From: an uncultured Peptococcaceae bacterium
GTDB lineage: Bacteria > Bacillota > Dehalobacteriia > UBA4068 > UBA4997
Assembly (NCBI GenBank): GCA_937897635.1
Contig: CALCQI010000025.1
Location: 53,749-117,748, forward strand
Length of the DNA: 64,000 bases
Direction: 5' to 3'
In this document: piece after piece, positions 7,643 through 59,463 of the stretch
Layout: the number at the start of each line of letters is the position of its first letter
How positions within the stretch are numbered: position 1 is the first letter of the stretch
Made by a program: the position numbers and the translations under genes
Notes under the pieces: generated by a model
The model's input: only the letters and a program-made list of their open reading frames with translations
Databases searched by the model: none
What the model was told of the DNA's origin: nothing

Positions 7643-8485
7643 TTAGAATTCCTGTGGCAAGCCTTCCAGTTCAGCCATGGTGAATACGGGGCCGTCCAGG
7701 CAAATATATTTACTGCCGATATTGCAACGTCCGCATTTACCAATACCGCATTTCATCCTCATTTCCAAGGTAGTGATAACCTGGTCATTAGAGAAGCCCA
7801 TTTTGGTAAGGCTATCTAAGCAGAATTTGATCATGATGGGAGGTCCACATAATACAACCATCCGGTTATCGGGTTTGAAAGCTAATTCTTCCAAATATGC
7901 GGGCACAAAGCCAACGTGGCAAGCCAGCTCCTCGTCATCACAGTCTACCGTGATATGAACTTTAGTATCCTTCATAGCAGGCCAGTTAGTATAAAGGTCT
8001 TCTTTGAATACCAAGTCTTTAGCACTGCGGGCACCGTAAAGGATGTCTATTTTACCATAATCTTCACGGTTTTCAAAAGCATAACGGATAAAAGAACGTA
8101 CAGGCGCTAAACCGATACCACCGCCGATAAACAGCATATCCTTGCCCTTGCAGGCTTCCACGGGGAAAGTATTGCCATAAGCTCCGCGCACACCTACCTG
8201 CTGGCCTACACTCATTTCATGCAGGGCATCGGTAAGCATACCGCAGCGTTTGATAGCAAAATCCAAATAATCCTCGCCTTTGGCGGTAACGGAGAACATA
8301 CCTTCACCAACACCTATCAGAGAGAACATGCCCAATTGGCCGGGCATGGGATCGAATGGCTTTTTGCCGTCCAATGTTTGTACCCTGAAGGTTTTAGTAT
8401 CAGGAGTTTCATCAGTTATTTTAATAACATTGCAAATTTGCGGCACCAAAGGATTTTCGCCACAAGTACATTCATGATTAGTCAT
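7643..8485 (-). CDS. flxA: FlxA-like FAD/NAD(P)-binding oxidoreductase subunit with a C-terminal [2Fe-2S] site (HydG/AsrB/sulfide-dehydrogenase-beta-like).
   Basis: Ferredoxin-NADP-reductase-like fold ('…RVQTLDGK…', 'MLFIGGGIGLAPVRS') and a C-terminal 'CGIGKCGRC' cluster motif. Last gene of the hdr-flx operon, overlapping the upstream gene. Confidence 0.75.
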   Translation of the reverse strand: MTNHECTCGENPLVPQICNVIKITDETPDTKTFRVQTLDGKKPFDPMPGQLGMFSLIGVGEGMFSVTAKGEDYLDFAIKRCGMLTDALHEMSVGQQVGVRGAYGNTFPVEACKGKDMLFIGGGIGLAPVRSFIRYAFENREDYGKIDILYGARSAKDLVFKEDLYTNWPAMKDTKVHITVDCDDEELACHVGFVPAYLEELAFKPDNRMVVLCGPPIMIKFCLDSLTKMGFSNDQVITTLEMRMKCGIGKCGRCNIGSKYICLDGPVFTMAELEGLPQEF

Positions 8486-9530
8486 TGCTGCCAGCCTCCT
8501 TTAATGCTCCCACTTTATCGATAAACATCGTAATATCAAGGTCTACGGGGCAATCGGCAACACAACGGCCGCAACCCACACAAAGAGAACCTTTACCATA
8601 GCGGTCTTCAAAATAGGCCAGTTTATGCAGGAAACGGTTGCGCACACGTTCCTTTTTACTGGGACGTGGATTATGGCCACCCGCCATTCTGGTATATTCG
8701 GAGAACATGCAGGAATCCCAGCAGCGGAATTTATAGCCTTCATTGCCGCATTCTTTGCCCTCGATATCAAAACAATAGCAGGTTGGGCAAACATAAGTGC
8801 AAGTACCGCAGCCAATGCATTTTTGAGCAGTTTCCTGCCAAATATCGCTTTCAAACATTTTTACATTCATTAATTTTTTCTGCACACCATCCATATTTAC
8901 TTTTAAGGTGCACTCCAAAGCAGCGGCTTCACCATCCCCTTCTTCCAATAAGGGTTTCAGAAGGTTAACCAAAGCTTCGCCTTTTTCGGTTTGGGCTTTT
9001 ACGGCATAATAATCCCCTAAGTCGTTAAGCTGAACATCCGCGGTAGGTGCAGCTACAGGGTTTAAGCCCATAGAATCGCAGAAACAGGTAGGCAAAACCT
9101 TAGTGCAGCCAATAGCTACAGTTGTAAGGTTTTCTTTTTTCCTGGAGTAGAAGCTGTCTACATAACCGCGGGTAAGGAAAACCTCATCCATGCAATCTAT
9201 AGAGTGCATATCACAGCTGCGGATACCAAAAATGATTTGCTTATCGGTTTCTTTGATTTCTTCAAGGCTTTCCACCTGGGTAAGCCTGGTTTTGTATTTA
9301 TACATTTTTTCCGTTTGCGGGAAAAGGGCATCCTTGGGAGGCAACAGCGTATTTACGGCATCCATGGCCAATTCGCCCTCTGCACCCCAAGGCGCAAATT
9401 TGGTAACTCCTTCTATTTTCATAGGCACAAGTAAATTAGCTTCCTTGGCCATTAAATCGAAGGCCTGTTGTAATTTATTTTTCGCTAGTTTCAATTTTGG
9501 CACCCCCCTACATATACTCTTCATGGTCAT
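8478..9530 (-). CDS. flxB: FlxB-like iron-sulfur subunit (AsrA/HydB-like, 4Fe-4S dicluster).
   Basis: 'CIGCGTCTYVCPTCYC' and 'CVGCGRCVADCP' ferredoxin motifs, 350 aa. Matches the beta subunit of sulfhydrogenase / anaerobic sulfite reductase subunit A. Confidence 0.7.
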   Translation of the reverse strand: MTMKSICRGVPKLKLAKNKLQQAFDLMAKEANLLVPMKIEGVTKFAPWGAEGELAMDAVNTLLPPKDALFPQTEKMYKYKTRLTQVESLEEIKETDKQIIFGIRSCDMHSIDCMDEVFLTRGYVDSFYSRKKENLTTVAIGCTKVLPTCFCDSMGLNPVAAPTADVQLNDLGDYYAVKAQTEKGEALVNLLKPLLEEGDGEAAALECTLKVNMDGVQKKLMNVKMFESDIWQETAQKCIGCGTCTYVCPTCYCFDIEGKECGNEGYKFRCWDSCMFSEYTRMAGGHNPRPSKKERVRNRFLHKLAYFEDRYGKGSLCVGCGRCVADCPVDLDITMFIDKVGALKEAGSND

Positions 9531-10362
9531 CTAATTTATAGGTGCCCAACGGAGGTTTAACTTCAGTGTTCATGCCAGCTTCATATTCACCGAACAGTTC
9601 ATTGGCGTCTTTCAGAAGCTTGCGGTTCAATTTCATAAGGGGAAGGCCTACAGGACATACGCGTTCACATTCACCGCATTCAATGCAGCGATCGCCAATG
9701 TGATAAGCACGGGTCAAACCATAAACCTGGTTTTCGGCACGGTTGTTCTGTTTACCCTGCCAACCTACCCTGTACTGATCCACATAACATTCACGGCAGT
9801 TGCAAGCCGGACAAACATTGCGGCAAGCATAGCAGCGGATGCATTTATCGTATTGCTTGGCCCAGAATTCATAACGTTCATCTGCACTTAAGGCTTCCAT
9901 AGCTTCTACATCTTTGAAGCGGTCGGGGTAGCCTTTTTCCTGTACGGGTTCACCAACCATTACATCAGCTTCCAGTGGGTTATGGTGCATACATTCAATA
10001 CACTTTTTAACCATTTCGCCTGTAACAGGATCTTTTTTGCCTTCACAGGGCAAACCAATGAGATAAACATTTTCCCTTTTTAGCTGATTATCTTGGATAA
10101 GACGGTTAACGGCACGGGAATCACAACCACGCACACATAAACCGATTTTCTTTTCGGGGTACATATTATCCATAGTATATTTGGCCAAAGTATTCAGGCA
10201 GTATTCATTCCAAACCAGTTCATCAACTTTGGCGGGTTCTTTTACAAATACGGGGCTGGTTTTATTAGTACGGCCTTTGCCCCAGCCTATTATATAACCT
10301 ACTTCACCGCTTTCCAAAAGCTTTTTGGCGGTTTCTCTCAATTTAGCCTGCATATCGCTCAT
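9508..10362 (-). CDS. flxC: FlxC-like polyferredoxin / iron-sulfur subunit.
   Basis: Multiple Cys clusters: 'CVRGCDS', 'CEGKKDP…CIECMHHNP', 'CIRCYACRNVCPACNC' and 'CIECGECERVCPVG'. Its RBS GGAGGGG lies inside the 3' end of the preceding mvhD-like gene. Confidence 0.65.
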   Translation of the reverse strand: MSDMQAKLRETAKKLLESGEVGYIIGWGKGRTNKTSPVFVKEPAKVDELVWNEYCLNTLAKYTMDNMYPEKKIGLCVRGCDSRAVNRLIQDNQLKRENVYLIGLPCEGKKDPVTGEMVKKCIECMHHNPLEADVMVGEPVQEKGYPDRFKDVEAMEALSADERYEFWAKQYDKCIRCYACRNVCPACNCRECYVDQYRVGWQGKQNNRAENQVYGLTRAYHIGDRCIECGECERVCPVGLPLMKLNRKLLKDANELFGEYEAGMNTEVKPPLGTYKLDDHEEYM

Positions 10363-10794
10363 TTAGTTCCCCTCCTTAAATTTGGTGTTGGGGCCTAATG
10401 CCGCTACATCAGCAGTAACTTTTTCAATAGTTTCTTTAAATTTGCCGGCCTCGGAACCGGAAATCCAACGAGCTTGGAAGCGGCCGGGTTCAATACCGTT
10501 ATATTGTAAAAATCTTTGCATCATCAAGAAGCGACGACGTGTGAAGTAATTGCCACTAACATAGTGGCAGTCGCCGGGGTGTCAGCCGGCCACCAAAATA
10601 CCGTCAATGCCTTTTTGGAAAGCACGCAGCACAAATTGGGGGTTTACCCTGCCGGAACAGGGAACACGCAATACGCGTACATTATCCGGATATTTCATCC
10701 TATTCAAGCCTGCCAAGTCTGCACCGGCATAAGCACACCAGTTGCAGCAGAAAGCTAAAATTTTAGGATTCCAGTTTCCTTCTTTTACAGACAC
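10363..10794 (-). CDS. flxD: MvhD/FlxD-like [2Fe-2S] protein with an in-frame UGA (selenocysteine) at 10582-10584. The ORF track truncates it at the UGA.
   Basis: Read-through translation gives '[52 protein letters not shown]…', which matches the conserved MvhD core (xGCxxGDCHYxxGN) with Sec at the first Cys position. A 7-bp stem-loop (tgccact/agtggca) begins 12 nt after the UGA at 10551-10569, which fits a bacterial SECIS. Confidence 0.7.
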
Positions 10795-12764
10795 AGCGCA
10801 TCCACCTCCTCTAAGATCTGGCCGTTGGTATAACCCAACAAATCAATAGCACCGGGACGGCAGGCAACTACGCAGGCACCGCAGCCTTGGCATAAACCGG
10901 TATTTACGGATGCTACTTTACGTTTTACCCATTTACCGTCTTCACGACTGTCTATTTCTTTCAACTCGATTGCTTTATAAGGACAGCATGCCGCACAGAA
11001 ACCGCATCCCGAACATTTTTCCGTATTCACATGGCTAATCATGGGGTCGGTATCCATTTCGTCTTTGCTGAAAAGTGCGCACACTTTAATAGCAGCAGCA
11101 GAAGCCTGAGCAACCGTATCTGGAATATCCTTGGGTCCTTGACAAGTACCTGCCAGGAAAACACCGCCCGTATGGGTTTCCACAGGACGTAATTTGGGGT
11201 GAGCTTCCTGAAGCCAACCATCTTTGTCCATGCCTGCACCGATCATCTGGGCAACCCTGGTAGTATCAGCGGAAGGAACCATAGCAGTTTCAAGAACTAC
11301 CAAATCTGCTTCCACTACCACATTTTTGCTTACTAAAGTATCTTCACCGCAGCAGAACAGCTTACCGTCTTCCTCATAAATCTTGGAAATACGGCCGCGT
11401 ACATAAACTGCACCGTCATGCAGGGTTTTCATGTAAAACTCTTCATAAGCTTTACCCGGAGTACGAACATCCATATAGAATACATAAGCCTGGCTGTCAG
11501 GGCATTTTTCCAGTACTTGGTGAGCATGCTTGGCAGCATACATACAGCAGGCACGAGAGCAGTAAGACCTGCCTTTATTGGGATCACGGGAGCCAACACA
11601 TTTTACGATAACTACCGATTTAGGAGTTTTGCCGTCGGAAGGACGAACAATTTTACCTTCAGTAGGGCCTGAAGCATTGCTCATACGCTCAAACTGCAAA
11701 CCATCTATAACATCGGGATATTTGCCGTAACCATATTCACCGTAAAGTTTAGCCCAGTCGATAAGATCATAACCTGTGGCCATTACGATGGCACCGAAAG
11801 TTTCGGTAACATATTTATCCTGGTCTTCAAAGTCTATGCAACCCAAAGGACAAACTTTGGCACAAATACCGCATTTACCTGTTAAAAGCTTACGGCAGCT
11901 TTGATTATCAATAACAGGTTTACTGGGAACGGCCTGTGGGAAAGGTTTGTAAATACTGGTACGCTTACCCAAACCTTGGTCAAATTCACTAGGTACCTTG
12001 GTAGGACATTTAGTTTCACAAAGACCACAGCCTGTGCAAACAGAATGGTTTACATATTTAGCTTTTTGTCTAATTTTAACTTGGAAGTTACCTATGTAAC
12101 CTTGAACATCTTCTATTTCACTGTAAGTCATTAATTCAATATTGGGGTGCTGCGCCGCAGCAACCATTTTAGGTGCGCTAATTCAGGCAGAGCAGTCTAA
12201 TGTAGGGAAGGTTTTGTCCAACATTGCCATTTTGCCGCCGATAGTAGCTTCTTTTTCCACTATCACTACTTTATGACCGGCATCCGCAATGTCCAAAGCC
12301 GCCTGTAAGCCTGCTATACCACCTCCGATCACCAATGCTCTTTTATTTATGGGAATTGTGGAAGTATACAAAGGCTCGTTTTTAGTTACCTTTGCAACCG
12401 CCATTTTTACAAGATCTGTAGCTTTTTGGGTAGCGCCTTCTTTATCGGTATGTACCCAAGCAACTTGCTCACGAATATTCGCTACTTCCAATAAATATGG
12501 GTTCATGCCTGCGTCGGCAAGGGTTTTACGAAAAGTAGCCTCATGCATACGGGGAGTACAGGCAGCAATAACTACCCTATCCAAACCTTGCTCTCTGATA
12601 GCCTCTTTAACCATTTCCTGACCGGGCTCCGAACACATATATTTATATTCTGTAGCAAAAACCACACCCGGCATTTCCTTGGCAGCTTCAACCACTTGGC
12701 CTACATCTATACCGGCAGCGATATTAGTACCACAATGGCATATAAATACACCTACACGCCTCAT
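10785..12764 (-). CDS. hdrA: Heterodisulfide reductase subunit A (HdrA), a selenoprotein. It is a single 659-codon ORF with an in-frame UGA at 12183-12185; the ORF track splits it into 12183..12764 and 10785..12167.
   Basis: The N-terminal piece '[19 protein letters not shown]…[16 protein letters not shown]…TLDCSA' stops at a TGA exactly where HdrA normally has Cys/Sec (TLDCSxC/U). The same frame continues '[11 protein letters not shown]…' into the C-terminal piece, which carries the ferredoxin clusters. A stem-loop ggttgctgcggcgcagcacc lies 17 nt after the UGA (12146-12165) and resembles the E. coli fdhF SECIS (GGUUGCAGGUCUGCACC). Confidence 0.8.
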
Positions 12765-13717
12765 GCTGTTTCGCCTCCATTTTTAGTATTTTCCTGTTTT
12801 GCCTTAGCAATAGGCTTAACAGGTTTTTTAGCCGAAACTTCTTCCACAGGTTTGGGAATCAAGGCTTTTTCGGCTACTTCCACAGCGGGGAAGAAGTGTT
12901 TATTTATACCTATCGCTTTGGCACCCGAACCTAAAGCCATAGCCAATAATTCGGTAAAGAAATAAACAGGGATATTCAAGCGAGGATCACGCCTGGACAT
13001 TTCCTTCATGCGCATATCCAAATTGAGCATGCATAAAGGACAAGCCGTTACTATAGCCTCGGCACCATTGCTTACCGCATTTTTAAGTAAACGGTAAATG
13101 ATTTCCCGCCCTACTTTAGGAACAGATACTTGGTGGCTAGCGCCGCAGCATTCGGTTTTGAATGCCCATTCCACAGGGGTAGCACCTACCAATTCCATTA
13201 ACTTATCCATGCTTTGAGGGTTTTCAGTATCATCGAACTGCACAACACCTGCAGGACGTACCAAAAGACAGCCGTAATAGCTGGCAACTTTCAGGCCGTT
13301 CAAGGGTTTGGCAATGTTAGCTTTGATAGCTTCCATTGCTTCAGGACGGCTCATTACGTCCAAAAGGCAGTAAACATCGTTTTTAGCCTTGTAGGGAATT
13401 TCCAAAATATCTTCTATATGTTTTTGGTTTTTTTCCGATTCCCTTACATATTTAACAGCTGTTTTCATTCTGCCGAAGCAAGCAGCACAAGGTACTGCAA
13501 CATCCAAATCCATATCTTCGGCCAAAGCCAAATTACGGGCAGGCAAAGCTATTGAAAGATCATGATTAGTAAGGTGAGCGGCAGAAGCACCGCAGCAGTT
13601 CCAATCAGGAGTTTCAATCAGCTCCATACCTATTTTTTTCGCCACAAATCGGCTGGAAAGCTCAAATTCCACACCGCTTCCTGCCGAAGAACAACCGGGA
13701 TAATATGCATATTTCAT
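12761..13717 (-). CDS. hdrB: Heterodisulfide reductase subunit B (two CCG domains).
   Basis: 'YYPGCS', 'CCGAS…' and a second 'CCGASHQ' cysteine-rich CCG motif, 318 aa. Stop/start overlaps with hdrA and hdrC. Confidence 0.8.
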   Translation of the reverse strand: MKYAYYPGCSSAGSGVEFELSSRFVAKKIGMELIETPDWNCCGASAAHLTNHDLSIALPARNLALAEDMDLDVAVPCAACFGRMKTAVKYVRESEKNQKHIEDILEIPYKAKNDVYCLLDVMSRPEAMEAIKANIAKPLNGLKVASYYGCLLVRPAGVVQFDDTENPQSMDKLMELVGATPVEWAFKTECCGASHQVSVPKVGREIIYRLLKNAVSNGAEAIVTACPLCMLNLDMRMKEMSRRDPRLNIPVYFFTELLAMALGSGAKAIGINKHFFPAVEVAEKALIPKPVEEVSAKKPVKPIAKAKQENTKNGGETA

Positions 13718-14283
13718 TATTTATTACCCCCTTCCAGGCATTTGGCCATAATTTTTCTTACGCTTGCTTTATCCTTAACCATATGCGGACGGATACGAAT
13801 CTTACGGTTGAAATATAAATGTGGGGCAGACCAAACATCCTGCATAAGGTGGCCTGTGGTAAAATTATACAAGCCCATCAAAACCATTTCATGAGATTTG
13901 CCGAAATAACGGATATTGTTCAGGAACAAATCATTAAAACGATTCAATTCCTTAATGGGTGTAATACCCTTCTTTTTAGCTTCCTGCCGAACAGCTTCCA
14001 TTAAAGAAGGCAAATCGACTTGATGCGGACAACGGGTAACACAGGTTTGACAAGTGGCACACAACCACGGAGTGCGGGCTTTAAGTACTTCATCCCACAT
14101 TCCAAGCTGCATGTAGCGAATGACTTCACGCGGTTGCAAGTCCATAGCCAAAGCTACAGGACAACCGGCTGAGCATTTGCCACATTGATAGCAGTCAGCA
14201 AGGTTTACGCCGGACTTAGCCTGCATATCCCCAATAACTGATTTGTTCTTGGCTGATGCTTTGGTTAAATCAACTACTACCAT
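13717..14283 (-). CDS. hdrC: Heterodisulfide reductase subunit C (4Fe-4S dicluster). Start re-placed to 'MVVVDL'.
   Basis: 'CYQCGKCSAGCP' and 'CATCQTCVTRCP' motifs. GAGGAG sits 5 nt upstream of the ATG at 14283. The 5' end carries a GGGG…CCCC hairpin. Confidence 0.75.
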   Translation of the reverse strand: MVVVDLTKASAKNKSVIGDMQAKSGVNLADCYQCGKCSAGCPVALAMDLQPREVIRYMQLGMWDEVLKARTPWLCATCQTCVTRCPHQVDLPSLMEAVRQEAKKKGITPIKELNRFNDLFLNNIRYFGKSHEMVLMGLYNFTTGHLMQDVWSAPHLYFNRKIRIRPHMVKDKASVRKIMAKCLEGGNK

Positions 14284-14567
14284 AATATCTCCTCTTCCTC
14301 CTTTTTGAACACAGGGGTTACGGCCCGTCCCCATTGGTTCTGCGTAATTAAATATAAAAAGAATTTATAGGCAAAGCCTTTTTTACGCACATCATTTATG
14401 AATTCTTTACAAATACTGCTTTTCCTGCTAATATATACGATTTTTGTAATTTTTTATTGTATTTTTTATGTTTTTCGACAGATGGAATTTTATTAGTATT
14501 TATACGCAATAAAAGTATAACATATGTATACTGTATTTTCATTAGCAATTTATGCTAAGAATAATAT

Positions 14568-15704
14568 TCAGTTTCGTAAAAATATTCGGGCAATAACACC
14601 ACGCTTGATGTTGATGGCTTTTTGCGGGCAAAGCTCATGGCAGCAAAAACAGCTTACACAAGTTGAAAGGTTTGCCATTGGTCTTTTGTTCTTAATTTCT
14701 ATTATTTTCATAGGGCAATTCTGGGCACAAAGACCACAGCCGTTGCAGGAAACACCGTTAAACACAGGGTATGCCTTAAGCCTTTTATCCAACCATTTCA
14801 CTATGAATTTTGGCAATTTATCAGCATACATATTAATAGCCGCACTTTTTGATTTTACAAAATCCTTTATACATACTTCAGCAAAATCATCCCCCAAAAT
14901 TTCAGGAAATTCATCAGCCTTCAACAAACCACGTTTGCAGGCAGCATTTAGCATAGGTACCTCTTTTGCATCCAAACCTATCAAAGCCGCCCCTACCCTA
15001 TCTAATGCAGGCAGATCCGCTCCTCCTAACAACACCCCTGCTTTACGGGGTTTACCGCCCGAAGGGCCGTCACCTTCCATTCCAACTATACCATCTATAA
15101 TGGCATAATCAGGTTTCATGGCAAAACAAATATCCAAAAGCGTATCGGCAAAATCGTTATATTCGGGCATCCGCAAATGGTACTGTATCTTTTCCACCCC
15201 GGGTATAGCACCAAACATATTTTTCATAGCACCTGTATATGCCATCATACCATGCGTTTTCAACTTAGCCATGCTTATAAGAATATCCGCCGCCGCCATG
15301 GCTTTTACCACATTCATTGTTTTGATTTTTTTACCCTCAGCAAAGCCTATTTCTATTGTATCCGTATTATAATTCAACTCACAGCCTACTGCTTTTGCCG
15401 CCTCCTGCATACATGTTATACGGTAAACCGTTTTCAGATAAGCCGCGTTAAAAACACCACCCGGGCTATCGCCAATGATCACCTTGCAGCCCTTTTCCAA
15501 AAAATAAAGTGCCACCGCTTTGATAACAGCAGGATGAGTGGTTACAGCTTCCTCAGGTTTTTTACCAAGCAAAAGATTGGCTTTTAAAAATACCGTTTGC
15601 CCCTTTTCTACATTTAAGGGGCTAAGCCGGAATATTTTTTTCACTTTTTCCGCTACTGATTTCTCATCATAATCCGCACATTTTAGCAAAACTACTTTTG
15701 ACAC
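14568..15704 (-). CDS. DUF362-domain protein with a C-terminal 2x[4Fe-4S] ferredoxin domain.
   Basis: C-terminal 'CNGCGLCAQNCP…CVSCFCCHELCP'. GTG start with GGAGG 7 nt upstream. Lies 233 bp upstream of, and in the same orientation as, the hdr-flx operon. Confidence 0.7.
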   Translation of the reverse strand: MSKVVLLKCADYDEKSVAEKVKKIFRLSPLNVEKGQTVFLKANLLLGKKPEEAVTTHPAVIKAVALYFLEKGCKVIIGDSPGGVFNAAYLKTVYRITCMQEAAKAVGCELNYNTDTIEIGFAEGKKIKTMNVVKAMAAADILISMAKLKTHGMMAYTGAMKNMFGAIPGVEKIQYHLRMPEYNDFADTLLDICFAMKPDYAIIDGIVGMEGDGPSGGKPRKAGVLLGGADLPALDRVGAALIGLDAKEVPMLNAACKRGLLKADEFPEILGDDFAEVCIKDFVKSKSAAINMYADKLPKFIVKWLDKRLKAYPVFNGVSCNGCGLCAQNCPMKIIEIKNKRPMANLSTCVSCFCCHELCPQKAINIKRGVIARIFLRN

Positions 15705-56733: not shown

Positions 56734-57624
56734 AGCATCCTCTCCACGAAACAAAATAAATACAGCATAAGATTAAGTAAAATGCTATATAATATAGTAA
56801 CTTTTCTGCAAAAGCAGAATATTACCTGCCCCAAACTCCAAATAAATTTTCCGACACTTTAACAAAACCGCAAAACAAGCATTTTTATACAAAAATACTA
56901 CATAATATTACATATTTTCCATTTATTTTTAAAAAATAAAATTAAAAAAAGGCAAAAAATTTTTTACTTCAGATTCAGACAATTTCCCAAAAAACAGGTT
57001 GATTTACATCAATTTTCCGACAAATCAATCATTTTATCAACATTAGACAATATCTTAACATGACGTTCCGTTGAGTGGAAAGAGTTTTTTGAAAATTCTC
57101 ACATGGCAATTTAAGTGGCATTTTGCTTTCTTAATATGAAAGTTTTAAATATAAGCATCTTTATGCCCTGCTATGGTATACTGTATACAGGAATAATGAA
57201 CTCATAAAAAGGCTTGCTATTTTGGCAATAATGTATTAGAATTGTTAAAGAGATTTAACGGGTTTTCCCTGTCCCTTATCCATTTTTTCCCTCATATAAA
57301 AAATGAATAATATTTACTTAATATTGCCTACGGAAAGCTGTGTATTCTTTTTCTTGCAGATATGCTTTAAATAGCAAAAAATGGCGATAAAACACAGCTC
57401 TAACATAAAATTATATGCTGTTTCATATTCCTTCCTATTAGAAATTTCCTATTAGAAACAGGTATAAGCATCTTTGGTAGTTAATTATAACAAAGGGGTT
57501 TATTATTTGTTTGCCCCTAGGCTTTTGGAAATTTCAGAAAAAACAAATAACCTTCTCTTGTCTTTGTTTTGCTTTGGTTAGAGGATCAAGGCAAAATAAA
57601 ATATATTTTAGGAGGCGCGAAGAA

Positions 57625-59463
57625 ATGAATGGTGGTTTTATGGGAAAATTTCTGTGGGTTAATTTGACCACAGGCGCAATCGAGGTGGAAAAGCCTGATA
57701 TAAGCCTTTATAAGGATTATTTGGGTGGCTACGGTATTGGAGATAAGATACTTTACGAAAAATTAAAGCCTGGTATCGATCCTTTGGGTCCTGAAAATAT
57801 TTTAGCTTATTTACCGGGGTTGCTTACCGGTACAGGTGCACTGGTTGCTTCCCGTTTTATGGTTGTAAGCAAATCGCCTTTAACAGGTGGTATCGGTGAT
57901 GCCAACTGCGGTGGACACATTGGCGCGGAAATGAAAAAAGCAGGCTTTGACGGTATTTATTTTACCGGCCAATCCGAAAAACCGGTTTACCTTTATATTA
58001 CAGATGACCATGCAGAACTGCGTGACGCTACATCTTACTGGGGTATGACAACTTACGAAACCGAGGAAGCCTTAAGAGAGGTAACCGACCCCAAAGCAAG
58101 GGTTTCCGCTATTGGACCGGCAGGTGAAAGAATGAGCCTGCTTGCTGCTATTGTAACTGAAAAAGGCAATGTTGCCGCTCGTTCCGGCCTTGGTGCCGTT
58201 ATGGGCTCAAAAAAGCTTAAAGCTGTAGTAGTTAAAGGTTCACAAAAAGTTAAAATTGCTGATGAAGAAGCTTTCAAAGCTGCCCGCGCAAAATATACCC
58301 CGGAATTCAAAGAAGGCATGGGGAAATTATTGCGAGATTTCGGTACTGCGGCTTTCTATGAAGGCTCTGTAGAATCTGCTGATGCTCCTATAAAAAACTG
58401 GGGCGGTGTTCCCAGCGATTATCCCAATGCTGCCAAATGCGGCGCCGAAGCTCTTAAAGAAATAACTGTTAAGAAAACTCCCTGTACAGGTTGCCCCGCT
58501 GGTTGCGCACGCCTGATACAACCCAAATATACCGATGAACAAATAAAAACTATTCAATATGAATCTCAGGGCGCTTTTGGTTCAATGTGCCTGGTAGATG
58601 ATTTGGAATCCATGGTAAAAGCCAACGATTACTGTAACCGTTACGGCACCGATACAATCTCTGTAGGTGCAGCCTGTGCTTTTGCCATAGAATGTTTTGA
58701 AAATGGTTTGTTGACACTGGAACAAACCGACGGCTTGGAATTAAAATGGGGCAACGGCCCTGCTATGGCTGAGCTTGCACGCCGTATCTGCATGAGAGAA
58801 ACCTGGCTGGGTGAGCTTTTGGCAGACGGCACCTTAAAGGCTACAGAACAGATTCCCGGCTCTTTCGAATATGCCATGCAAATTGGCGGCCAGGAACTGC
58901 CCATGCACGACCAACGCTTAACTTATGGCCTTTATACTATGTATTTGGCAGAACCCACGCCGGGCAAACATACTCAAGGTACTGAGGACTATGCTCCTCC
59001 GCAAATCCCCATGCCTGAATATGATCCCGCAGGCCAGGCTGATCGTGGTGCGTCTCACAAAATGATAGAAGACTTTGCCCACGTTGTTGATGCTTTAGGT
59101 TTTTGCCTTTTTACTAATATATTCATACTTCCTTACACAAGTGCGGAAGATTTCCTAAACGCTGTTACCGGCGAAAAATATACCTTTGAAGATTTACTTA
59201 AAATAGGCGACCGTATTTCCATGCTGCGTCATGCTTTTAATACCCGTGAAGGCATTAAATTCACTGACCGCAAGGTTCCTAAACGTTTACTGAAGGCTCC
59301 CGAAAAAGAAGGTCCCCTGCAAGGCGTTGTGTTAGACCATGATCAGCTGATTGGGGATTATTTGAAGGATTCCGGTTTGGATCCTGTTACCCTTAAACCC
59401 AAAAAAGAACGTCTTTTGGCTTTGGGTCTTGATAATGTGGCATCAGAACTTTACCCGGAATAA
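57625..59463 (+). CDS. aor: Tungsten-type aldehyde:ferredoxin oxidoreductase (AOR family).
   Basis: 'GKFLWVNLTTGAIEVEKPD' AOR N-terminus and a 'CTGCPAGC' [4Fe-4S] motif. AGGAGG is 9 nt upstream of the ATG at 57625. The track start at 57511 is an in-frame artefact. Confidence 0.85.
   Translation: MNGGFMGKFLWVNLTTGAIEVEKPDISLYKDYLGGYGIGDKILYEKLKPGIDPLGPENILAYLPGLLTGTGALVASRFMVVSKSPLTGGIGDANCGGHIGAEMKKAGFDGIYFTGQSEKPVYLYITDDHAELRDATSYWGMTTYETEEALREVTDPKARVSAIGPAGERMSLLAAIVTEKGNVAARSGLGAVMGSKKLKAVVVKGSQKVKIADEEAFKAARAKYTPEFKEGMGKLLRDFGTAAFYEGSVESADAPIKNWGGVPSDYPNAAKCGAEALKEITVKKTPCTGCPAGCARLIQPKYTDEQIKTIQYESQGAFGSMCLVDDLESMVKANDYCNRYGTDTISVGAACAFAIECFENGLLTLEQTDGLELKWGNGPAMAELARRICMRETWLGELLADGTLKATEQIPGSFEYAMQIGGQELPMHDQRLTYGLYTMYLAEPTPGKHTQGTEDYAPPQIPMPEYDPAGQADRGASHKMIEDFAHVVDALGFCLFTNIFILPYTSAEDFLNAVTGEKYTFEDLLKIGDRISMLRHAFNTREGIKFTDRKVPKRLLKAPEKEGPLQGVVLDHDQLIGDYLKDSGLDPVTLKPKKERLLALGLDNVASELYPE

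Follow-up and report, generated by a model that had tools for sequence, protein, structure and literature searches.

Selenocysteine very probably explains two in-frame TGA codons in the hdrA and mvhD/flxD genes of an hdrCBA-flxDCBA-like operon

Lists of selenoprotein families include HdrA, as a CxxU family, and FrhD/MvhD/VhuD (PF02662). Sec197 has been modelled in HdrA of Methanococcus maripaludis, and a bacterial Sec-HdrA (HdrA1/HdrA2) adjoining a Sec-MvhD has been reported in Desulfobacterium autotrophicum. Archaeal VhuD is described in a review as having up to two Sec residues and a CxxU motif. According to a recent review, Sec-containing [NiFeSe]-hydrogenase subunits, MvhD/VhuD included, are restricted to sulfate reducers and methanogens. 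In M. marburgensis, an unidentified ligand sits between the bifurcating FAD and the [2Fe-2S] cluster of MvhD; it is bound by the Cys202/Cys205 pair of HdrA, and two residues of MvhD, His68 and Asp71, are located at it. A related complex, FlxABCD-HdrABC, is known from Desulfovibrio vulgaris (Ramos et al. 2015, as presented in PMC6687939 and PMC4759654).

The locus described here lies in a 64-kb window, the whole stretch of DNA that was analysed, from an uncultured spore-forming member of the Clostridia. Its features are as follows.

13717-14334, minus strand: hdrC-like gene, 205 aa (188 aa in the calls of other assemblies); Fer4_8/Fer4_17, and NCBIfam CoB--CoM heterodisulfide reductase subunit C below cut-off
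12761-13717, minus strand: hdrB-like gene, 318 aa; two CCG domains, and NCBIfam HdrB below cut-off
10785-12764, minus strand: hdrA, read as a single 659-codon gene with probable Sec at codon 194; end-to-end alignment with 5ODC_A
12183-12185, minus strand: UGA, probable Sec194 of HdrA (CSAU, a CxxU motif); aligned Cys/Sec column
12146-12165, minus strand: SECIS-like hairpin of hdrA, GGU(U)GCUGC-GGC-GCAGCACC; fold, recoding, covariation and geometry
10363-10794, minus strand: mvhD/flxD, read as a single 143-codon gene with probable Sec at codon 71; Pfam FlpD and 5ODC_D alignment
10582-10584, minus strand: UGA, probable Sec71 of MvhD/FlxD (G-U-H-P-G-D-C-H-Y); aligned Cys column
10551-10569, minus strand: SECIS-like hairpin of mvhD, UGCCACU-AUGUU-AGUGGCA; shuffling, relatives, and Sec versus Cys genes
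9508-10362, minus strand: iron-sulfur protein of 284 aa at the place of FlxC; matches FrhB_FdhB_C weakly and has 4Fe-4S dicluster domains
8478-9530, minus strand: iron-sulfur protein of 350 aa at the place of FlxB (AsrA/sulfhydrogenase-beta like); Fer4_22, and NCBIfam AsrA, ShyB and HydB, all below cut-off
7643-8485, minus strand: [2Fe-2S] protein of 280 aa that binds FAD/NAD(P), at the place of FlxA; NAD_binding_1 and DHODB_Fe-S_bind, and NCBIfam AsrB and sulfhydrogenase gamma below cut-off

These genes form an hdrCBA-flxDCBA-like operon, and relatives carry the same cluster of seven genes. The Flx label of the 284-aa protein is taken from gene order. Further neighbours are a DUF362 gene and genes for LysM, Hsp33, YlbF and Fur, and a promoter and terminator scan of the operon gave results at chance level. 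By domain content, the cluster holds the same seven kinds of gene as the D. vulgaris complex as that is presented in the citing papers (HdrA, HdrB, HdrC, an MvhD-like FlxD, two iron-sulfur proteins and a FAD/NAD(P) protein), but differs in its order. The encoded complex is probably an NAD(P)H-dependent electron-bifurcating enzyme of the Flx-Hdr type, judging from its genes. An MvhADG-HdrABC hydrogenase complex was considered and rejected; the neighbours encode two iron-sulfur proteins and a FAD/NAD protein, and no [NiFe] large or small subunit genes accompany mvhD. A Moorella-type MetFV-HdrABC-MvhD complex was also rejected, as the genes past mvhD are like AsrA and AsrB and not MetF and MetV.

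Gene calling divides hdrA into a 193-aa ORF (12183-12764) and a 460-aa ORF (10785-12167). As the earlier note had proposed, the two lie in one minus-strand frame, only the TGA at 12183-12185 separates them, and the junction reads TLDCSA-*-ISAPKMV. When this TGA is read through, residues 3-656 of the product match the solved HdrA structure 5ODC_A (E 3e-216), positions 1-640 of the NCBIfam HdrA2 model are covered, and Cys homologues of 659-660 aa are 66-75% identical. The column of residue 194 is Cys in all 119 full-length HdrA homologues. In the alignment, C191-S-A-U194 pairs with Cys194/Cys197 of 5ODC_A, placing U194 as the second residue of the CxxC/U motif. In HdrA of M. thermolithotrophicus it aligns with Cys197, in that of M. 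marburgensis with Cys205, and its equivalent in M. maripaludis is Sec197, bearing out the suggestion that the codon falls on a Cys/Sec position. The protein thus shares family, domain order and Sec column with the Sec-HdrA of M. maripaludis and D. autotrophicum. It differs from them in its clostridial host and in its partners, which are Flx-like NAD(P)H modules and not a hydrogenase or formate dehydrogenase.

The mvhD gene starts with a GTG that overlaps the hdrA stop and is preceded by a GGAGGTG Shine-Dalgarno site. Its 70-aa ORF (10582-10794) ends '...ILVAG' at the TGA at 10582-10584, and the frame runs on to a TAA at 10363. The in-frame continuation was as claimed, but it comprises 72 codons before the stop and not the 74 that had been counted. 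Residues 12-134 of the read-through product match the whole of Pfam FlpD (1-123 of 123, E 4e-53), and the product aligns with 5ODC_D (E 2e-48). In every solved MvhD chain, the residue aligned with U71 is the first Cys of GCHxGDCHY. TGA stands at this site in 24 other genomes, again in agreement with a Cys/Sec position; among the 45 MvhD genes in the fetched loci, 24 have TGA and 21 have Cys. Like the VhuD/MvhD/FrhD selenoproteins, this MvhD has a full FlpD domain and Sec in place of a conserved Cys, and its gene lies next to hdrA, as it does in the known selenoprotein clusters of frhD-hdrA type. It differs in having one Sec only, in G-U-H-x-G-D-C-H-Y, and its N-terminal CCNWC motif is all Cys. 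Homologues of HdrA and MvhD neither end at the two TGAs nor become unrelated past them, and the alignments and FlpD profile coverage support full-length products from read-through. Taken with the evidence below, both TGAs are very probably selenocysteine codons.

One base change turns a Cys codon into TGA, so errors of sequencing or assembly for TGC or TGT were considered. Both split genes recur in six independent assemblies of the species (NCBI, Logan, ENA and JGI; 98.7-100% identical) and in more distant relatives. The chance of an error is practically negligible, and this explanation is effectively refuted.

Real nonsense mutations in decaying hdrA and mvhD pseudogenes would produce the truncated pieces seen in gene calls and would also fit the Sec machinery, of which none is seen within the window: selC (tRNA-Sec), selA, selB and selD are all absent from these 64 kb, and a motif hunt for SelB, SelD and SelA across the fetched loci and the window returned nothing genuine. 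Yet both TGAs are retained in relatives of only ~72% DNA identity. After the TGAs, identity with these relatives is 0.83-0.86 at codon positions 1 and 2 and 0.43-0.53 at position 3, the same as before them; purifying selection persists downstream of each TGA. Among 659 and 143 codons, moreover, the TGAs land exactly on known Sec positions, and in at least 120 other species TGA occupies the HdrA site and the ORF continues. Decay of the two genes is highly improbable. Leaving aside antisense shadows of longer ORFs, the window has no other pair of same-frame ORFs that a TGA joins with 60 aa or more per side, so the two cases are more than chance.

A hairpin stands downstream of each TGA, at the places and SECIS-like distances given in the earlier note. 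The hdrA hairpin, GGTTGCTGCGGCGCAGCACC at 12146-12165, starts 17 nt past the TGA and has 8 bp, a bulged U and a GGC loop that begins 26 nt past the UGA. The mvhD hairpin begins 12 nt past its TGA, and an alternative fold has 8 bp and a UGU loop 20 nt past the UGA. For bacterial SECIS elements, the bSECISearch criteria are an apical loop ~16-37 nt from the UGA and a G among the first two loop bases. By these criteria, both hairpins fall within bacterial SECIS geometry, since they lie directly downstream, their loops are at a fitting distance and the loop G is present. Loop distance and loop G also fit in 102-103 of 120 HdrA hairpins and 23-24 of 25 MvhD hairpins.

The hdrA hairpin had been likened to the E. 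coli fdhF SECIS, and the fdhF string quoted for it is correct, being present within fdhF in 5419 of 5426 E. coli genomes. The likeness holds for the GGU-U-GC...GC-ACC base, the bulged U and an apical loop with G first. It does not extend to the upper stem, which is longer in hdrA (8 bp in the whole hairpin versus 6), to the loop (GGC versus GGUC) or to the start (17 versus 11 nt past the UGA). Among the Sec-HdrA hairpins, 35 of 120 have a GGUC loop identical to that of fdhF. The mvhD hairpin and the fdhF SECIS are unrelated in sequence.

By dinucleotide shuffling, the stability of the hdrA hairpin region was not unusual (z about 0), and this uninformative test was replaced by a synonymous-recoding null. 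Of the synonymous recodings, 98.5% folded less stably than the hdrA hairpin (z -2.45, p 0.015), and the Sec-HdrA family had a mean z of -1.63, with 38% at p<=0.05. Cys-type HdrA offered just two control genes in the fetched loci, which is too few; for MvhD, the Cys control (n=21) sufficed. There, structure after the codon had a mean z of -1.61 in Sec genes versus -0.31 in Cys genes. The window's mvhD hairpin alone reached only p 0.12 against synonymous recoding, and its dinucleotide-shuffle z was -3.0. Compensatory changes occur at 3 of the 8 pairs of the hdrA stem, and 1 of 500 shuffles attained the covariation score observed; the sequences in this alignment were pre-selected for keeping the window's pairing register, which inflates the percentage of paired cells. 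In the ~72%-identical relatives, the mvhD hairpin is nearly unchanged, with one C-to-U stem wobble or a loop change. Synonymous-site conservation past the UGAs, compared with loci L127 and L128, rises modestly (top 6-15% of windows). Rfam searches of the window at the gathering score and of the region at E<=10 gave chance matches only, and neither hairpin was matched. This has little weight because bacterial SECIS hairpins are short and diverse. Recoding tests and covariation support the hairpins, and RNA structure after the UGA is under selection across the family.

UGA could instead be decoded other than as Sec, either by near-cognate read-through as Cys or Trp or by a reassigned code. Low-level UGA read-through occurs in bacteria, and the lack of Sec machinery within the window would fit here as well. 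However, TGA serves as the ordinary stop of 8 of the window's 54 long ORFs, so there is no reassignment of the code; one of the eight is hdrB, whose TGA overlaps the hdrA ATG. Furthermore, the structure after the UGA is selected in TGA-bearing genes only and not in Cys homologues, and the hairpins have the geometry of bacterial SECIS elements. Such decoding is very unlikely.

Lastly, an ATG 15 nt past the hdrA TGA could allow HdrA to be made as two polypeptides (193 aa, and 460 aa from the ATG at 12167) and MvhD as a 70-aa protein. This ATG has no Shine-Dalgarno site (GCGCACCTAAAATG), whereas hdrA, mvhD and the next gene have GGAGG-type sites. The split would also remove the conserved Cys/Sec and ISAPK segment within the FAD domain, and in a 70-aa MvhD half of the FlpD domain would be missing, and with it the helix that reportedly binds HdrA. 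Separate products of this kind are extremely improbable.

Under the selenocysteine reading, the hairpin just 3' of each UGA would act as a bacterial SECIS and recruit SelB-GTP with Sec-tRNA(Sec) on the hdrCBA-flxDCBA mRNA. Sec would then be inserted in place of termination, yielding a 659-aa HdrA (Sec194) and a 143-aa MvhD/FlxD (Sec71). We infer the SelB mechanism from the established bacterial pathway. By alignment, HdrA Sec194 corresponds to Cys205 of the M. marburgensis Cys202/Cys205 pair and MvhD Sec71 to Cys67. Sec194 would take the place of the second Cys in the CxxC pair, which sits between the [2Fe-2S] cluster of MvhD and the bifurcating FAD. Sec71 would precede a His by one residue and an Asp by four, both of which approach that site in methanogen structures. 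Since both selenols would lie near the CxxC/[2Fe-2S]/FAD site, they would tune electron delivery into the flavin. That Sec194 and Sec71 work as a pair, at a single site between the subunits, is a tentative suggestion from the aligned positions, and a rather doubtful one.

The gene callers have split two intact genes because both apparent stops are almost certainly Sec codons. JGI names the 193-aa and 460-aa HdrA pieces as separate genes, in the public gene calls for the species hdrA appears as two proteins and mvhD is reduced to a 70-aa stub, and no full-length copy of the window's HdrA was found among the database matches. The expectation that homology-based annotation would mis-call both genes was correct. 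A 2025 survey found the same hdrA-splitting artefact in Methanocaldococcus. With hdrA and mvhD listed in pieces, pathway reconstructions would score the complex as broken.

Both genes add members to well-known selenoprotein families, a sound but ordinary result, and neither the annotation point nor the biological one is conceptually new. The host shows neither sulfate-reducer nor methanogen traits within the window, and the finding, if true, extends the range of Sec-MvhD past those two groups. It marks the organism as a probable selenium user and would place selenium at the entry to the bifurcating flavin of a complex of the Flx-Hdr type. If true, a selenium relay at this junction, within a clostridial Flx-Hdr complex driven by NAD(P)H, would bear on how the flavin receives its electrons from the [2Fe-2S] cluster.

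On the minus strand of the window, the ORFs that follow hdrC and hdrB are 193 aa and 460 aa long in the same frame, and the next is 70 aa long. Reading through a TGA in two places gave the following gene order:

13717-14334, minus strand: hdrC (ORF)
12761-13717, minus strand: hdrB (ORF)
10785-12764, minus strand: hdrA, a 659-codon frame with TGA 12183-12185 as its single interruption (translation)
10363-10794, minus strand: mvhD, a 143-codon frame with TGA 10582-10584 as its single interruption (translation)
First gene after mvhD: 284-aa FeS protein (domain content)
Second gene after mvhD: 350-aa AsrA/sulfhydrogenase-beta-like FeS protein (domain content)
Third gene after mvhD: 280-aa FAD/NAD(P) [2Fe-2S] protein (domain content)

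The earlier note had joined the two hdrA fragments in one frame, and the junction TLDCSA*ISAPKMV is present in the translation of 10785-12764. It had also extended mvhD past its TGA, which holds, with 72 further codons instead of the 74 claimed. In a six-frame scan of the window for TGA-joined ORF pairs of at least 60 aa per side, excluding antisense shadows of longer genes, only hdrA and mvhD were found. For hdrC (13717-14334, minus strand) the start codon is uncertain: the longest ORF opens with the ATG at 14334 and encodes 205 aa, and a 188-aa product is called in most other assemblies.

The cluster matches published descriptions of FlxABCD-HdrABC in gene content, and its order in the window is hdrCBA-flxDCBA. 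Neither hydrogenase nor formate dehydrogenase genes nor metFV adjoin it in the window, the remainder of which is housekeeping (dnaE, recA, rny, proS, ispG, dxr, topA, trmFO, hslU, murF, ddl and the sporulation gene ytvI). The gene next upstream of hdrC, in sister assemblies as well, encodes a DUF362 protein that carries a 4Fe-4S dicluster at its C-terminus (14568-15704, minus strand). This gene is probably outside the conserved operon, since the upstream neighbors differ in loci L127 and L128 from other genomes. A 650-aa ORF (57511-59463, plus strand) matches the NCBIfam aldehyde:ferredoxin oxidoreductase model at 227.5 bits, well under the 868-bit cut-off, with the best stretch in only the N-terminal ~220 residues.

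The read-through proteins were compared with Cys substituted for the stop. HdrA residues 3-656 align with 5ODC_A, the HdrA chain of the Methanothermococcus thermolithotrophicus crystal structure (E 3e-216), and four further solved HdrA chains also match. MvhD spans Pfam FlpD from end to end (1-123 of 123, E 4e-53) and matches all solved MvhD chains, the best at E 2e-48. In the NCBIfam model of the HdrA2 fusion protein, HdrA and MvhD jointly account for positions 1-640 and 645-774. Homology thus spans both TGAs, and each lies on a conserved Cys/Sec position, as had been proposed from the sequence. In HdrA, the stop takes the place of the second Cys of a CxxC motif, numbered Cys197 in 5ODC_A and Cys205 in the M. 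marburgensis chain; in MvhD, it takes the place of the initial Cys in GCHxGDCHY. Cys occupies the HdrA position in all 119 full-length homologues from the databases (66-75% identical).

Sequencing error was ruled out by recurrence of the TGAs. Six independent assemblies (NCBI MAG GCA_036797205.1, Logan, three ENA, JGI), with 98.7-100% DNA identity to the window, encode an identical 460-aa fragment; the 193 + 460 split is found in all six and the 70-aa mvhD stub in all five reaching that far. In a separate lineage (loci L127-L132), with ~72% DNA identity across the 2.3-kb region, the operon is the same and the two TGAs are retained, at codons 194 and 70. Gene decay was ruled out by this retention and by the codon-position pattern. 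After the TGAs, identity to these relatives is 0.83-0.86 at positions 1 and 2 versus 0.43-0.53 at position 3, the same as before them, and therefore the downstream parts are translated in frame. A changed genetic code was rejected: TGA is the ordinary stop of 8 of the window's 54 long ORFs, hdrB among them, and the code is therefore standard.

Species-representative genomes were searched with the degenerate pattern TFPTxDCxx-TGA-I, which at least 120 stretches match. Hosts among the matches listed include Desulfobacterales, Syntrophobacterales, Anaerolineae, Dehalococcoidia, Syntrophomonadaceae, Thermacetogenium, Dethiobacter, and Asgard and other archaea. The HdrA frame goes on past the TGA in 117 of the 121 matches listed; of the remaining four, three reach the end of the retrieved DNA and one meets another in-frame stop. 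Among 45 MvhD-like genes in these loci, 24 have TGA and 21 Cys at the window's MvhD position. Of 34 MvhD N-termini that form a single cluster at 90% identity, 33 belong to 69-70-aa stubs (Sec forms) and the last to a complete 144-aa Cys form in a Veillonellaceae MAG, indicating Sec/Cys switching between close relatives. A Cys-type HdrA match (P0041) is also labeled Veillonellaceae. In Desulfotomaculum reducens locus I, 'pseudogene' Dred_0138 lies between an HdrA gene and FeS/FeS/FAD-NAD genes (PMC4759654). This is the slot of mvhD in the window, so Dred_0138 may be a further Sec-mvhD misread as a broken gene.

The hairpins lie where the earlier note put them, at 12146-12165 and 10551-10569, 17 and 12 nt after the respective TGAs. 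The thermodynamic evidence for them is mixed. Against dinucleotide shuffles, the mvhD hairpin is exceptional (z -3.0) and the hdrA region has z about 0. A second null, judged more appropriate, held the protein fixed and redrew synonymous codons. The window hdrA segment out-folds 98.5% of these recodings (z -2.45), and the 120 Sec-type hdrA matches listed have mean z -1.63, with p<=0.05 in 38%. For mvhD, Sec-type genes average -1.61 (p<=0.05 in 40%) versus -0.31 (10%) for Cys-type genes from the same loci; the window gene has z -1.47.

Both hairpins agree with the bSECISearch consensus, a loop 16-37 nt after the UGA and a G among its first two bases. The loop begins in this range in 103/120 hdrA-family and 24/25 mvhD-family hairpins (26 and 20 nt in the window), and the G is present in 102/120 and 23/25 (window loops GGC and UGU). 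Median stem length is 7 bp for hdrA and 8 bp for mvhD, and 8 bp in both window hairpins. The most frequent loops among the 120 listed Sec-type hdrA genes are AGGU (42) and GGUC (35), the latter being that of the E. coli fdhF SECIS, whose sequence had been quoted correctly. No Rfam family matches either hairpin. Across loci, the MvhD UGA is followed by two unrelated hairpin designs, whose stems draw on different codons of one shared CHY..GN peptide: CAUUACC-UGGAA-GGUAAUG in most Desulfobacterota-type loci and UGCCACU-AUGUU-AGUGGCA in the window (10551-10569, minus strand), L051, L102, L127 and L128.

Covariation was scored in nine sequences picked for keeping the window's hdrA pairing register, which inflates the 97% paired figure and leaves the compensatory changes themselves unaffected. 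Three of eight stem pairs show two-sided changes (C-G to A-U, U-A to C-G, C-G to U-A). One shuffle in 500 reached the covariation score, which collapses once partners are slid. The first two changes are tied to the amino-acid change VAAAQH to VDAARH. VAAAQH is encoded over GCUGC-GGC-GCAGC in window-type genes (window 12146-12165, minus strand) and VDAARH over GACGC-GGC-GCGUC in Anaerolineales and deltaproteobacterial genes (L073:4939-5001, L078:4948-5010). The residues that follow the HdrA Sec change together with the hairpin, and therefore RNA pairing constrains two amino-acid positions.

Standard bacterial Sec insertion at both UGAs best explains these data. A SECIS hairpin directly 3' of each UGA would recruit SelB with Sec-tRNA(Sec), a step drawn from established knowledge of the bacterial pathway. 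The earlier note had predicted selABCD for the organism; no tRNA-Sec or sel genes were found within the 64-kb window.

HdrA (CxxU) and FrhD/MvhD/VhuD are listed and experimentally verified selenoprotein families, a bacterial Sec-HdrA adjoining a Sec-MvhD was described in 2009, and Sec-hdrA genes are documented to have been annotated wrongly as partial. The window genes are therefore further members of known families. The finding of two Sec genes is correct and useful for annotation; mild novelty lies only in the host and the type of complex, a Clostridia Flx-Hdr cluster, and in the mapping of both Sec sites to one HdrA-MvhD junction.

In M. maripaludis HdrA, the equivalent residue is Sec197, and a cryo-EM feature bridges it and the neighboring Cys between cluster A3 and FAD, which its authors consider a possible selenylsulfide relay. 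In M. marburgensis, an unknown ligand bound by the Cys202/Cys205 pair lies between FAD and the [2Fe-2S] cluster of MvhD, and MvhD His68 and Asp71 approach the same ligand. Electron entry into the bifurcating flavin is a step still described as unknown. Window HdrA U194 aligns to M. marburgensis Cys205, and MvhD U71 to Cys67, directly before His68 and near Asp71. By this alignment, both selenium atoms would sit at the junction that feeds electrons into the bifurcating flavin.
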